The notes beneath the pieces are model-generated. The model did not search any database. It had not been told where the DNA came from and saw only the letters and a program-made list of their open reading frames with translations. A DNA stretch of 64,000 nt, from NCBI GenBank assembly GCA_964490245.1, contig CAZBAF010000001.1, positions 25,149-89,148 on the forward strand, given 5' to 3'. Of this stretch, positions 10,099 through 22,962 are shown piece by piece. The translations under genes and the position numbers were made by a program. The stretch's first letter is position 1, and each line of letters begins with the position of its first letter. This stretch comes from an uncultured Candidatus Saccharibacteria bacterium. GTDB lineage: Bacteria; Patescibacteriota; Saccharimonadia; Saccharimonadales; JACDBH01.

Positions 10099-10380
10099 TG
10101 CGCCTATTTTTGGTGTGATAATTTACCCCAGGCCGTTGACACTTCTTCTTCGTATGTTCATATACGTCTTTAAAATGGAGGCCTGACCTCAGGACAAATT
10201 ACCCTTGTCCACAAAATAGCCGCTTAACAGTGGTTTTCCCGTCACAAATTTCATCTGTAGCTTTACAGGGCTAGTTGGCAGGGTTGTTTGGAAAAACCGC
10301 CCGCTGCAAGAAGATAAAATTTCAGGCCAGAGTTTTTGATTTTGACAGTACAAAACTTACCTGGCTTCATACACGCTATC

Positions 10381-10534
10381 TTTTTATTATAGCATACTTG
10401 TCAAGAGTTTGTCAATATCTACCCCTGTTACATGTTATAGACTAGCCAACGTTACCAAGAGAGATATCCTGCCTAAACCCCATATTTCCTGTTTCTTATT
10501 CCATATTTCATATTTCTCTGCAGCGAACCATAAT
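10381..10534. repeat. left copy of a 154-bp perfect inverted repeat (partner 22707-22860)
   Basis: Verified base by base: the reverse complement of 10381-10534 equals 22707-22860. Imperfect homology extends to about 10295-10566. Confidence 0.95.
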
Positions 10535-10568
10535 CACCTATTATCTATTACTCTAGAGTTGCCGCGTC

Positions 10569-11702
10569 CTAAACAATAACCCTGGCAACAGCCTCAACCA
10601 CGCCGGGATCAAACGGTCCGGGGATAATCTTTTCAGCTGTTGGCTGCGGCACAAGGTCGGCCAGGGCCTGAGCGGCGGCCAGTTTATGCTGGTCGGTGAT
10701 TTTAGTAACGCCGTTATCCAGCGCACCTCGGAATATTCCCGGGAAGCCAAGCGAATTATTAACTTGATTCGGGAAATCGCTGCGGCCGGTGGCGATCACG
10801 GCGGCGCCGGCCTCGCGGGCCAGGTCGGGCAAGATCTCGGGCTCGGGGTTGGCCATTGCAAAAATAATCGGATTATCAGCCATGCTGCGTACCATATCGG
10901 CCGTAAGCAGGCCGGCCCGGGACACACCGATAAACACATCGGCGCCCATCAGGGCGTGCTCGAGCGAGCCGTTGAGGTGCTTGGGGTTGGTAAAGACCAG
11001 CAGTGAACGCTTTTCTTCATTCAAATCCGTACGATCCTTACTGATAATACCCTTGCTGTCGACGGCTACAATCTCTGCCTGCGTGTAGAGATTAAGCAGT
11101 TTAATAATGGCCGTGCCGGCGGCTCCGGCACCCACGACCACAATGCGGGCTTCGTCCAGTTTGCGGCCGGTCAGTTTGGCGGCATTGATCAGGCCGGCCA
11201 GAGTCACGATGGCTGTGCCGTGCTGGTCGTCGTGCATGACCGGTATATTCAGCTCGGCTTTTAGGCGCTCTTCAATCTCGAAACACTTGGGGGCAGAAAT
11301 ATCCTCCAGGTTAATACCGCCAAAGGACGGCGCGATGGCTTTGACGGCAGCGATAATCTCTTCCGGTTCGTGCACATCCAACACAATCGGTACAGCGTCG
11401 ACGTCGGCAAAGTGCTTAAACAGCATCGCTTTGCCCTCCATGACCGGCATGGCGCCATGCGGCCCGATATCGCCCAGGCCCAGTACGGCTGAGCCGTCCG
11501 ATACCACCGCCACCAGATTATTGGTCCAGCTGAGCTGGCGCAGCTCGTCGGGGTGTGCGGCCGCGTATTGTGCCACGCCGCCGACTCCGGGGGTGTAGTA
11601 CATGCTGAGCTTCTCTTTGCTGTCCGGAATGTCGCGCAGTGAGGTTGATATTTTGCCTTTTTTTTCGCGGTGCAGGTTTAGTGCTTCTTCATAAATATCC
11701 AT
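10569..11702 (-). CDS. NAD(P)-dependent malic enzyme (short form)
   Basis: 377 aa. LSMYYTPGVGGVA, VVSDGSAVLGLGDIGPHGAMPVMEGKAMLFK and VVVGAGAAGTA are malic enzyme motifs. Confidence 0.9.
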   Translation of the reverse strand: MDIYEEALNLHREKKGKISTSLRDIPDSKEKLSMYYTPGVGGVAQYAAAHPDELRQLSWTNNLVAVVSDGSAVLGLGDIGPHGAMPVMEGKAMLFKHFADVDAVPIVLDVHEPEEIIAAVKAIAPSFGGINLEDISAPKCFEIEERLKAELNIPVMHDDQHGTAIVTLAGLINAAKLTGRKLDEARIVVVGAGAAGTAIIKLLNLYTQAEIVAVDSKGIISKDRTDLNEEKRSLLVFTNPKHLNGSLEHALMGADVFIGVSRAGLLTADMVRSMADNPIIFAMANPEPEILPDLAREAGAAVIATGRSDFPNQVNNSLGFPGIFRGALDNGVTKITDQHKLAAAQALADLVPQPTAEKIIPGPFDPGVVEAVARVIV

Positions 11703-11722
11703 GTCAATCAGTGTATAGTTTT

Positions 11723-11771
11723 TAGTGGCTAGTGGCTAGTGGCTAGTGGCTAGTGGCTAGTGGCTAGTGGC
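11723..11771. repeat. perfect tandem heptamer (TAGTGGC)x7
   Basis: Seven exact units. On the minus strand it reads (GCCACTA)n and lies 21 nt upstream of the malic enzyme start at 11702. Confidence 0.98.
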
Positions 11772-21623: not shown

Positions 21624-21705
21624 GCCCTGCGCACTGGGGCGGCCGCGGATGGCGGTAAAAAATTACACCGCCCTAAATACAAGTAAGCTATAATTGTCTT
21701 GATAT

Positions 21706-22674
21706 ATGCGCATCGGGAAGGTACTGGGTTTTGGAACGGTGTTGCTGTCGCTGGCAGCCTTGCTGCTGATGACAGTGTTCCGGCAGGATATCCAGGACTG
21801 GCGGCGTCTGCAGGGATACACGCCGCCGCCCGAAATCGTCGCTTTGGCCCAGGACACCACAATGTTGGATTCTGCCCGGCGTCTGTTTTATATTCAGCAC
21901 CCGCAGCTTACCGATAAGGTGACTTTTAATGAGCATTGCCGTCAGAACGAGCAAAGTATTGTGCTGGGGTGTTATGTCAGCAATCACGGTATCTACCTGC
22001 TGGATGTCACTGATGAACGGCTGGCCGGTGTAAAGCAAGTCACAGCCGCGCACGAGCTGCTGCATGCGGCGTATGAGCGTTTGTCTGACAAAGAGCGCCG
22101 TCAGGTTGATGGCTGGCTCCAGCAGGTCTATGACGGGCTCAATGACGAGCACGTCAAAAAAACCGTCGAGCTGTACCGCGAACATGACCCGTCCGTGGTC
22201 CCGAACGAGCTACATTCCATTATCGGCACCGAGGTGCGCGACCTGCCCGTACATCTTGAGGAGTACTACAGCCGATATTTTAGCGACCGGCTGAAGATTG
22301 TGGCGTTCTCTGAACAGTACGAGCAGGCCTTTATCGAGCGCCGCAACCAGATACGCGGCTATGACGAGCAGTTGGCAACGCTCAAAGGCCGGATAGAAGG
22401 CCTGCAGAATGACCTGGCGTCAGCACATGCCGAGCTGACCGGACAGCGCAGCCACATGAACCAGCTGCGCCGCGATGGCCAGATAGAGGCCTACAACAGC
22501 GAGGTACCGCGCTACAACGCGCGCGTCAACCAGTACAATCGTGATATAGACCGGCTGCAGACGCTAATTGCGCAGTATAACGATCTGGTTCAGCAACGTA
22601 ACGCCATTGCCAGCGAAGAAGCCGAACTGGTGGAGGCTATCGACAGCCGGACTGCTATTCCGCGGCAACTCTAG
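21706..22674 (+). CDS. membrane-anchored hypothetical protein with HExxH motif and C-terminal coiled coil
   Basis: N-terminal TM helix (VLGFGTVLLSLAALLLMTVF), VTAAHELLHAAY, and a heptad-rich C-terminus (RYNARVNQYNRDIDRLQTLIAQYNDLVQQ). Confidence 0.6.
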   Translation: MRIGKVLGFGTVLLSLAALLLMTVFRQDIQDWRRLQGYTPPPEIVALAQDTTMLDSARRLFYIQHPQLTDKVTFNEHCRQNEQSIVLGCYVSNHGIYLLDVTDERLAGVKQVTAAHELLHAAYERLSDKERRQVDGWLQQVYDGLNDEHVKKTVELYREHDPSVVPNELHSIIGTEVRDLPVHLEEYYSRYFSDRLKIVAFSEQYEQAFIERRNQIRGYDEQLATLKGRIEGLQNDLASAHAELTGQRSHMNQLRRDGQIEAYNSEVPRYNARVNQYNRDIDRLQTLIAQYNDLVQQRNAIASEEAELVEAIDSRTAIPRQL

Positions 22675-22706
22675 AGTAATAGGTAATAGGTGATAGATAA
22701 TAGGTA

Positions 22707-22860
22707 ATTATGGTTCGCTGCAGAGAAATATGAAATATGGAATAAGAAACAGGAAATATGGGGTTTAGGCAGGATATCTCTCTTGGTAACGTTGGCTAGT
22801 CTATAACATGTAACAGGGGTAGATATTGACAAACTCTTGACAAGTATGCTATAATAAAAA
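22707..22860. repeat. right copy of the 154-bp perfect inverted repeat (partner 10381-10534)
   Basis: See the left copy. Imperfect homology extends to about 22664-22945. Confidence 0.95.
22826..22855 (+). promoter_or_regulatory. strong sigma70-like promoter TTGACA-N18-TGcTATAAT inside the repeat, pointing toward radA
   Basis: Hexamers read directly. The mirror copy on the minus strand at 10386-10415 points toward the pilB 3' end. Confidence 0.6.
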
Positions 22861-22962
22861 TATAGGGTGCATGAAGCTAGGCAAGCTTTGTACTGTCAAA
22901 ATCCCACCAGAGGCCTTAAGTTTGCTTAAGGTTTGCGGCGGGATACACGTTATACTAAGGCT

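Follow-up and report, generated by a model that had tools for sequence, protein, structure and literature searches.

Two copies of an inverted repeat, each carrying an outward-facing promoter-like site, bracket a 12.1-kb block of housekeeping genes in a Saccharibacteria genome (Saccharimonadales), raising the question of how the repeat arose and whether it inverts, transcribes or otherwise controls anything. The stretch of DNA analysed, referred to here as the window, is 64 kb long, and all coordinates are window positions. In Saccharibacteria, whose genomes are small and highly syntenic and contain few repeats, an inverted repeat that is perfect over 154 bp is therefore locally unusual.

Architecture of the repeat and its surroundings

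Gapped alignment of the two copies spans 229 aligned nucleotides, with seven mismatches and one 14-nt (two-heptad) indel. It confirms the 154-bp core of the original prediction, the left arm being the exact reverse complement of the right. The window contains two occurrences of a 40-nt piece of this core, and none of 100 shuffles contains any. An inverted-repeat search resolves two pairs of arms: 10338–10551 with 22690–22903 (214 nt, 96%), and 10533–10566 with 22661–22694 (34 nt, 97%), the latter offset by 14 nt from the longer pair. Homology had been proposed to continue to about 10295 and 22945; it is solid as far as 10338 and 22903, but farther out it becomes marginal, with a local alignment equalled by 156 of 5,000 shuffles, and on the left side weak similarity may reach outward to about 10300. 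The repeat includes, as predicted, the final 14 nt of the coding sequence at 21706–22674 (orf322), and the alignment bears out the two-unit difference between the heptad tracts: the GTAATAG array is two units longer in the right copy. Heptad arrays are common in the intergenic DNA of the window. In left-copy coordinates, the mismatches lie at 10535, 10380, 10375, 10371, 10363, 10359 and 10355. The junctions of both copies display no terminal inverted repeats, target-site duplication, microhomology or other scar.

Pfam searches recover the gene content previously assigned to the bracketed segment, namely malic enzyme, L19, RNase HII, UPF0102/YraN, an M1 aminopeptidase, NusA and a ClpC-type protein, and identify a PilB-type ATPase to the left of the segment and RadA to the right. 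Both terminal genes point their 3' ends outward, again as predicted (malic enzyme on the minus strand, stop at 10569; orf322 on the plus strand, stop at 22674). A Pfam scan of every window ORF with a length of 90 amino acids or more, 50 in all, gave no recombinase, integrase or transposase domain. A search of the window for tRNA and tmRNA genes gave a sole match, a tRNA-Leu at 34062.

Each copy contains the sequence TTGACA-N18-TGcTATAAT, directed away from the segment and matching the consensus at 12 of 12 positions. Both are promoters by consensus match only, and there is no other 12/12 site between 9800 and 23300. The left site lies on the minus strand, convergent with pilB, and about 280 nt separate the two, in agreement with the geometry put forward earlier. 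The core also holds a TTGACAA-N4-TTGACAA direct repeat, which we considered and rejected as a CtsR box: its period is 11 rather than 10 and its half-site is different. Only two full copies of the repeat are found within the 64 kb; a third, partial promoter module upstream of hisS matches the right copy over 57 nt (78.9%) and the left copy over 56 nt (80.4%).

Table 1. Features of the inverted-repeat locus, in window coordinates
Feature	Position	Strand	Remarks
Unique spacer, pilB stop to left copy	10099..10337	.	Any left-promoter transcript would traverse it
Left copy, derived	10338..10566	-	In convergent pilB/malic enzyme spacer, 3 nt from malic enzyme stop codon
Perfect core, left arm	10381..10534	.	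154 bp; unitig L003 matches at 100%
Left promoter-like site	10386..10415	-	Faces pilB 3' end (stop 10098)
Bracketed 12.1-kb segment	10567..22660	.	Malic enzyme(-), rplS, orf204, rnhB, yraN, pepN(-), nusA, orf92, clpC, orf322
Right copy, original	22661..22903	+	orf322 last 14 nt, two heptad arrays, promoter, first ~45 nt of leader
Degenerate heptad arrays, right copy	22676..22760	+	GTAATAG x4.7 at 22676-22708; GAAATAT x5.1 at 22725-22760
Perfect core, right arm	22707..22860	.	154 bp
Right promoter-like site	22826..22855	+	107 nt upstream of radA ATG; homologous to promoters ~20 nt past orf322 in relatives L009 and L087
Native proximal radA signal	22951..22965	+	TATACT-aaggct-ATG, leaderless-type; same layout in at least 10 relatives
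Third, partial promoter-module copy	35596..35656	+	AACAGGGGTA..TTGACAAA..TGCTAcAAT AAAAAGATAG; 57-60 nt, 75-80%; 123 nt upstream of hisS

Origin of the two copies

More than 20 related species-level genomes carry pilB, malic enzyme through clpC, orf322 and radA, all oriented as in the window, and so does contig L087, from a closer relative, which spans malic enzyme to radA. The original prediction had named, as one refuting outcome, a neutral recent duplication absent from relatives; indeed, none of the species-level relatives found carries the repeat, the nearest one compared being 66–68% identical for orf322 and for pepN about 70%. A protein search with orf322 returned one identical protein, with the next best match at or below 68%, and a scan for pepN across GTDB genomes and JGI metagenomes peaked at 71% identity. 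In relatives, the orf322–radA spacer mostly measures 17–70 nt and the pilB–malic enzyme spacer 3–70 nt, and both are otherwise occupied by accessory genes, of which the window spacers at the two junctions contain no remnants. The repeat marks two places that serve as insertion hot spots in relatives.

The C-terminus of orf322 (..EAIDSRTAIPRQL*) ends where its relatives end (..EAIDSREIVPNQQ* and ..REAVPVR*; ..CAACTCTGA in L087), which indicates that the 14 coding nucleotides of the repeat are native to orf322 and secondary in the left copy. The promoter of the right copy, TTGACAAAC...TGCTATAAT, has homologues directly after orf322 in two relatives: L009 has ggAACAGatgaatacTTGACAAACatagtaaagtgTGCTATACTctatgTATAGGGTaCgTG 17 nt past the orf322 stop, compared with gtAACAGgggtagataTTGACAAACtcttgacaagtaTGCTATAATaaaaaTATAGGGTgCaTG in the right copy of the window, and L087 has TTGACAAAC about 24 nt past it. 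The native orf322 3' end and these promoter homologues together show that the right copy sits at its native place and is the original. At the informative sites 22861 and 22866, L009 sides with the right copy both times, so that the left copy is derived: it is an inverted ectopic duplicate in the pilB/malic enzyme spacer.

The mismatches between the copies cluster outside the core. The chance of such a clean stretch is C(75,7)/C(229,7), or about 3.3e-4 per position, which after multiplication by eight gaps gives P of about 0.003. A perfect core between diverged flanks had been taken to suggest ongoing gene conversion or recombination. The non-random core fits conversion or recent recombination. 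Conversion is read only from the mismatch pattern, and the same picture would be expected if the core had been duplicated very recently onto a patch of older homology, or if the upstream region were under selection. The copies are real and probably held identical by recombination.

We propose for this locus a history of copying and conversion. About 230–265 bp of the right region would have been copied, in inverted orientation, into the pilB/malic enzyme spacer. Expansion of the heptad array in the window lineage has placed the promoter roughly 130 nt farther from the orf322 stop codon. RecA-type gene conversion would homogenise the central 154 bp while the edges drift, the drift being represented by six substitutions that immediately follow the -10 element and by slippage of two heptads at the inner edge. 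Taken as a whole, we consider it reasonably likely that the locus represents a segmental duplication, inverted and specific to this lineage, of the orf322–radA intergenic promoter region, with the copies kept identical by conversion.

Competing explanations

Could the left copy instead be maintained for its own sake? It might be a selected unit, encoding a pilB antisense RNA, a small RNA or a peptide co-regulated with radA, with selection rather than conversion preserving the core. In other bacteria PilB and RadA both have links to transformation and the uptake of DNA, a common connection that would suit such a unit, as would a full-consensus extended -10 promoter preserved without change along with 119 nt upstream of it, and the approximately 280 nt available downstream before pilB. 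That downstream region, however, contains no CDS or convincing ORF, no Rfam family and no terminator-like site, and neither the window nor relatives nor Rfam hold a homologue of the spacer 10099–10337. At gathering score, no Rfam covariance model matches anywhere in the window, the repeat included; in E-value mode the two copies gave only chance-level matches (E = 3.8–4.2) or none. The left leader folds unremarkably (z = -1.3, against -2.2 for the right leader), and the hairpin of the right copy is not kept in the left. A 35-aa ORF shared by the copies differs between left and right by two non-synonymous changes and one synonymous change and lacks a Shine-Dalgarno sequence. We rejected the small ORFs of the repeat as genes: the shared ones have a non-coding appearance, and one overlaps radA in a different frame. 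Moreover, AT-rich upstream DNA is rarely held at 154 of 154 positions by selection, and the transcribed portion is the most diverged portion of the repeat. These observations make a selected unit unlikely. Most likely the left promoter is a mere by-product and an orphan; any RNA that it did give rise to would be unterminated and antisense to the pilB 3' end.

The original prediction also held that the repeats can invert the 12-kb segment. This stands insofar as the repeat would be a possible substrate for flipping 12.1 kb: 154 bp of uninterrupted identity is above the minimal length, on the order of tens of base pairs, and sufficient for RecA-type recombination. Active inversion, in which crossing-over in the core flips the block appreciably and both orientations coexist in the population, is nevertheless distinctly unlikely in our view. 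It would leave both terminal ORFs intact whichever way round, the perfection of the core suggests that the copies have exchanged sequence recently, and repeats in other bacteria are known to mediate reversible inversions (PMC6778178). Against this, all relatives that cover both ends, the more than 20 genomes as well as L087, show one and the same orientation, and none has the inverted arrangement. Within the segment, GC skew has the positive sign seen in the flanks instead of being averaged out to near zero. Conservation in relatives and the matching skew together indicate that the present orientation is ancestral and long-standing. No invertase is encoded among the 50 window ORFs scanned.

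An inversion would also not act as a switch, because both promoters point outward within the identical core, so that promoter–gene links and ORFs would be unchanged; flipping would be functionally silent, with radA keeping its promoter and no ORF being cut. It would, on the other hand, be mildly harmful, since this intra-replichore event would leave nine of the 11 segment genes on the lagging strand, a shift that selection is expected to oppose (PMC9297083). The reference orientation would accordingly be the stable one.

Quite improbable is the idea that the repeat is the footprint of a staggered-break inversion, in which the breakpoint was duplicated in inverted form at both ends and a later re-inversion via the new repeat restored the order. 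Inverted duplications were reportedly found at inversion breakpoints in Drosophila by Ranz et al. in 2007, which would provide a precedent. At this locus the native junction sequence of one end recurs inverted exactly at the other, the block is flanked by two gene 3' ends, and in relatives the duplicated sequence is single-copy at the native right site. The scheme, however, needs two events where a single ectopic insertion or template switch would do. The segment lies in the ancestral orientation rather than inverted relative to other genomes, its GC skew carries no sign of an inverted period, and the junctions are without microhomology or other scar.

Very improbable, too, is that the copies operate as a working pair, with a regulator site in the core firing both promoters and radA induction coupled to a pilB-damping antisense RNA, and/or that the block flips at low frequency. 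Candidate regulator sites for such a pair may be the TTGACAA direct repeat or the GAAATAT array of the core. Low-frequency flipping, if true, would give the candidate phyla radiation its first described bacterium with a recombination-driven invertible block.

Least credible of all are the readings that the repeat is mobile or dispersed, in the manner of a MITE or REP sequence, or that it is a product of the assembly, although both intergenic spacers exceed those of relatives by roughly the length of the element and a repeat longer than short-read k-mers is prone to assembler error. The inner end consists of coding sequence native to orf322, terminal inverted repeats and target-site duplications are lacking, there are only two full copies in 64 kb, no transposase occurs among the 50 window ORFs scanned, and phage, plasmid, viral and metagenome searches found no match. 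An exact 25-nt core pattern had zero matches in JGI metagenome contigs and zero in IMG/VR, and blastn with the element yielded nothing in phages and a 36-nt chance match only in plasmids. An 8-nt similarity between the ends (CGCGGCAA / TTGCgGCG), considered as the mark of a MITE, is at chance level.

As regards an artefact, independent Logan unitigs from two SRA runs show the left copy beside pilB and malic enzyme, complete with the flanks, SNPs and two-heptad version that are its own. At 100% identity, L003 joins pilB, the left outer flank and the core, L004 joins malic enzyme and the left inner flank, and L001 and L002 join orf322 and the right inner flank. The unitigs were built at k = 31, too short to span the core; L004, L001 and L002 end about 30 nt into it and L003 at its inner border. 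The radA-side flank was not recovered among the Logan unitigs, look-ups from both possible radA starts giving no record. Because the repeat breaks short-read graphs in this way, it is a caution for assemblers.

The repeat may thus be regarded as a fairly ordinary lineage-specific duplication, and on present evidence its interest is chiefly as an illustration of promoter-region duplication and gene conversion. Block inversion or silencing of pilB by the orphan promoter would, if true, bear on the regulation of the episymbiont pilus and of DNA repair.

Comparison with known systems

Invertons share with this locus inverted repeats around a DNA segment and the involvement of a promoter. Their repeats are tens of base pairs long, the segment is usually shorter than 1–5 kb, the promoter lies inside it, and the gene for a dedicated invertase is close by. 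In contrast, the window has repeats of about 230 bp with a 154-bp core, outward promoters within them, 12.1 kb of core genes between them and, among its 50 ORFs searched with Pfam, no recombinase.

RecA-dependent inversions, as described in Staphylococcus aureus (PMC6778178) and in a survey of long repeats (PMC9297083), likewise involve inverted identical copies on one replichore that bracket a gene block. In the cases known, the repeats are IS, rrn or prophage sequences of kb scale, whereas here the perfect identity extends over 154 bp, neither a change of orientation nor a phenotype is seen, and a flip would be silent for expression.

Putative mobile promoters are defined by at least 80% identity over at least 50 nt upstream of non-homologous CDSs, and most published families are near-identical pairs (Matus-Garcia, Nijveen & van Passel 2012, PMC3488235; PMC3575422). 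The likeness lies in a compact promoter-bearing intergenic stretch that recurs in the genome without its gene, and in the diverged third copy (57–60 nt) before the unrelated hisS. The main pair is hard to place under this definition, as the left copy precedes no CDS; the hisS copy is borderline, at 79–80% over 56–57 nt, and no mobilising mechanism is evident here.

Concerted evolution by gene conversion is familiar from dispersed bacterial repeats such as the tuf and rrn paralogues. Our repeat differs from these in being non-coding and very short, near the lower size limit for efficient conversion, but it resembles them in its identical interior and diverged edges.

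Anatomy and independent support of the inverted repeat

The repeat search of the window returned a pair of inverted arms (214 nt, 96% identity) and, at a 14-nt offset from it, a second pair of 34 nt. Aligned with gaps over 229 positions, the two copies differ by seven mismatches and by a 14-nt indel, equal to two heptads; this bears out the original observation of an exact inverted identity in a 154-bp core and of a heptad tract differing by two units between the copies. A 40-nt stretch of the core is present at two places in the window and in none of 100 shuffles. The homology proposed to extend to about 10295 and 22945 proved marginal past 10338 and 22903, its score being equalled in 156 of 5,000 shuffles. 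The feature is genuine and its earlier description accurate, including the gene identities, which agree with Pfam.

Logan unitigs from two SRA runs (SRR7082966 and SRR7082976) match the window at 100% identity over pilB, the left outer flank and the core (L003), over the malic enzyme gene and left inner flank (L004), and over orf322, the last gene of the bracketed 12.1-kb segment, and right inner flank (L001 and L002). L003 ends at the inner core border and the others ~30 nt into the core, the pattern that a genuine repeat should produce in a k = 31 graph. Because the left-copy junctions are reproduced in these unitigs, a scaffolding artefact is ruled out as the source of the left copy. The radA-side flank was sought in the same runs and not recovered, and the exact radA protein has no entry for these runs. 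L003 (SRR7082976; window 10100-10534) runs from pilB across the whole core, unbroken at the outer core border, the expected branch point for the radA-side copy. The unitigs suggest that the radA side is low or uneven in coverage in those samples.

Coordinates of the repeat and other window features
Feature	Position	Strand	Remark
Inverted arms, first pair	10338-10551 / 22690-22903		214 nt
Inverted arms, second pair	10533-10566 / 22661-22694		34 nt
Perfect core	10381-10534 / 22707-22860		exact reverse complements
Mismatches between copies	10535, 10380, 10375, 10371, 10363, 10359, 10355		gapped alignment
Predicted promoter, right copy	22826-22855	+	12/12 consensus match
Predicted promoter, left copy	10415-10386	-	12/12 consensus match
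Proximal radA signal	22951-22965	+	TATACT-6 nt-ATG
Third, partial promoter-module copy	35596-35656	+	123 nt upstream of hisS (35779); 57-60 nt, 75-80% identity
orf322	21706-22674	+	
Heptad arrays	8385-8404; 11723-11772; 58692-58713; 60480-60530; 60559-60591		
Heptad array	33241-33281	-	
DNA methylase	49617-51434		low-GC island
Shedu SduA_C-domain protein	51436-52392		low-GC island
ResIII helicase with endonuclease domain	52389-55169		low-GC island

Origin of the two copies

Our preferred reading of the repeat is that a native promoter region was duplicated in inverted orientation in this lineage, that gene conversion has homogenised the copies, and that the outward predicted promoter of the left one is an orphan. 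A pepN-based scan places the window in Saccharibacteria (Saccharimonadales), with the closest species representatives at 62-71% pepN identity and none closer by pepN found in JGI metagenomes. The element is absent from both sites in all relatives examined. Their pilB-malic enzyme spacer measures 3-70 nt or holds accessory genes (a WhiB-like protein, a ~220-aa protein and others; L012-L014, L016, L023, L024, L030 and L032). Between orf322 and radA most of them have 17-70 nt (L028 has 143 nt), and the remainder have accessory genes (L009, L024, L083-L087): the four closest contigs carry a 325-aa secreted-looking protein, L087 a 94-aa membrane protein, L009 2.4 kb with a 232-aa protein and small ORFs, and L024 an ABC transporter. 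Given these inserts, the two repeat-bearing junctions are variable where the rest of the block is rigid, and they are insertion hot spots in relatives.

The orf322 product of the window (..EAIDSRTAIPRQL*) ends at the same point as those of relatives (..EAIDSREIVPNQQ*, ..EAIDSREAVPVR*) and has ..CAACTCTGA in common with that of L087. These matching C termini imply that the 14 nt at the inner end of the repeat (CGCGGCAACTCTAG) are native coding sequence of orf322, which makes the copy beside the malic enzyme gene secondary. The promoter of L009, ~17 nt past the orf322 stop, aligns with the right copy well outside the hexamers (AACAG..TTGACAAAC..TGCTATAcT..TATAGGGTnCnTG), and L087 carries TTGACAAAC ~24 nt past the stop. 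L009 agrees with the right copy at both outgroup-informative mismatches, which argues that the right copy, at the native locus, is the source and the left copy a derived duplicate.

Compared with relatives, the promoter in the window lies ~130 nt farther from the orf322 stop, and two degenerate heptad arrays (GTAATAG x4.7 and GAAATAT x5.1) fill this extra distance. Since heptanucleotide tandem arrays are frequent in the intergenic DNA of the window, the long spacer probably arose by local expansion of such arrays; the two units by which the copies differ reflect ordinary slippage. Elsewhere, the divergent malic enzyme/rplS spacer holds a perfect TAGTGGC x7.1, two further loci carry TAGTGGC-like arrays (11 matches versus 1 expected), and the rpsL-rpsG spacer contains CATTTGC x7.7 and AATTGAA x4.7. 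Cyanobacterial STRR repeats are likewise heptamers, which these arrays recall.

Six of the seven mismatches fall inside 26 nt directly downstream of the -10. If seven mismatches are scattered over 229 positions, an uninterrupted match of 154 or more arises with P about 0.003 (our calculation: C(75,7)/C(229,7), about 3.3e-4, times about 8 possible gaps). This pattern, identity inside and drift at the edges, is what concerted evolution through gene conversion classically leaves and, as had been proposed from the perfect core and diverged flanks, we infer that the copies were homogenised in this way.

Predicted promoters and transcripts

As originally described, each copy carries an outward-facing TTGACA-N18-TGcTATAAT; the two are the only perfect promoter matches within 9800-23300. 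On the right, 107 nt separate the end of the -10 from the radA ATG (22963). A proximal radA signal is also present in the window, and this TAnAnT-6/7 nt-ATG layout (9 nt in L017) likewise precedes radA in at least 10 relatives (L008, L012-L015, L017, L021, L022, L025 and L032); a Shine-Dalgarno sequence is lacking in the window as in these relatives. This conserved layout suggests a native, conserved leaderless radA mRNA, its promoter embedded in the 3' end of orf322. Since radA has a proximal signal of its own, the predicted distal promoter would be an added input to radA; its counterpart in relatives would drive accessory genes.

The predicted left-copy transcript, a minus-strand one, would begin at about 10378, cross 10337-10099 and then run antisense into pilB. 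The 10337-10099 stretch has no Rfam match, terminator-like site or credible ORF, no homologue anywhere searched, and an unremarkable RNA fold as the left leader (z = -1.3).

The partial module copy upstream of hisS has the layout AACAGGGGTA-N5-TTGACAAA-N14-TGCTACAAT-AAAAAGATAG, in which AACAGGGGTA precedes the -35 and AAAAAGATAG follows the -10, and a proximal TATAAT lies 12 nt upstream of the hisS ATG. radA and hisS are thus alike in combining a distal strong predicted promoter with a proximal leaderless-type -10.

Segment orientation and comparison with known systems

Mapping 15 window proteins onto the loci of relatives gave the same order (SpoU-methylase, pilB, malic enzyme, rplS, rnhB, yraN, pepN, nusA, clpC, orf322, radA, PBP) and relative orientations in every genome covering both ends (>20). 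Five closer contigs from an orf322 protein search (63-68% identity) agree, one of them spanning malic enzyme to radA. GC skew is positive over the entire window, even over minus-strand pepN, averaging ~+0.06 in the 12-kb segment versus ~+0.08 in the flanks. Since relatives share the orientation and the skew is positive, the present orientation is ancestral and long-standing.

orf322 itself, found between clpC and radA at every related locus examined, has no Pfam match and >2000 homologues at E <= 1e-30. Its N-terminal hydrophobic segment, HELLH (HExxH) motif and long C-terminal coiled-coil-like region point to a possible membrane-anchored, metallopeptidase-like protein. A low-GC island (~47900-55200; 43-48% versus about 54% elsewhere) separates rpoC from the rpsL-rpsG-fusA operon and probably serves defence.

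The inverted junction copy could also stem from a staggered-break inversion that was later reversed, which would account for the junction sequence recurring at the opposite end of the block; two events are needed, and neither orientation nor GC skew bears a trace of them. Inversion by crossing-over in the core, as originally suggested, is mechanistically possible, but no inverted order occurs among the >20 relatives and GC skew is undisturbed. Such an inversion would not act as a switch, because the promoters lie within the identical core and face outward, radA would keep its promoter and the terminal ORFs their own 3' ends. It would shift nine of the 11 segment genes to the lagging strand, and intra-replichore inversions of that kind are expected to be selected against (PMC9297083). 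There is no evidence for inversion or a new mechanism.

An inverton is rejected, as the promoters face outward within the repeats and no recombinase or transposase domain turned up in the 50 window ORFs of 90 aa or longer; a MITE, as the inner end of the repeat is native orf322 coding sequence; and a known RNA, as Rfam gives no match to the repeat. Repeat-mediated inversion substrates (PMC6778178, PMC9297083) resemble it in geometry only. The closest concept to this duplicated promoter region is promoter propagation, in which near-identical promoter stretches ('putative mobile promoters'), mainly pairs, are reused within a genome (PMC3488235); the formal definition does not extend to the main pair, because no CDS lies downstream of its left copy, and the module copy at hisS is borderline.
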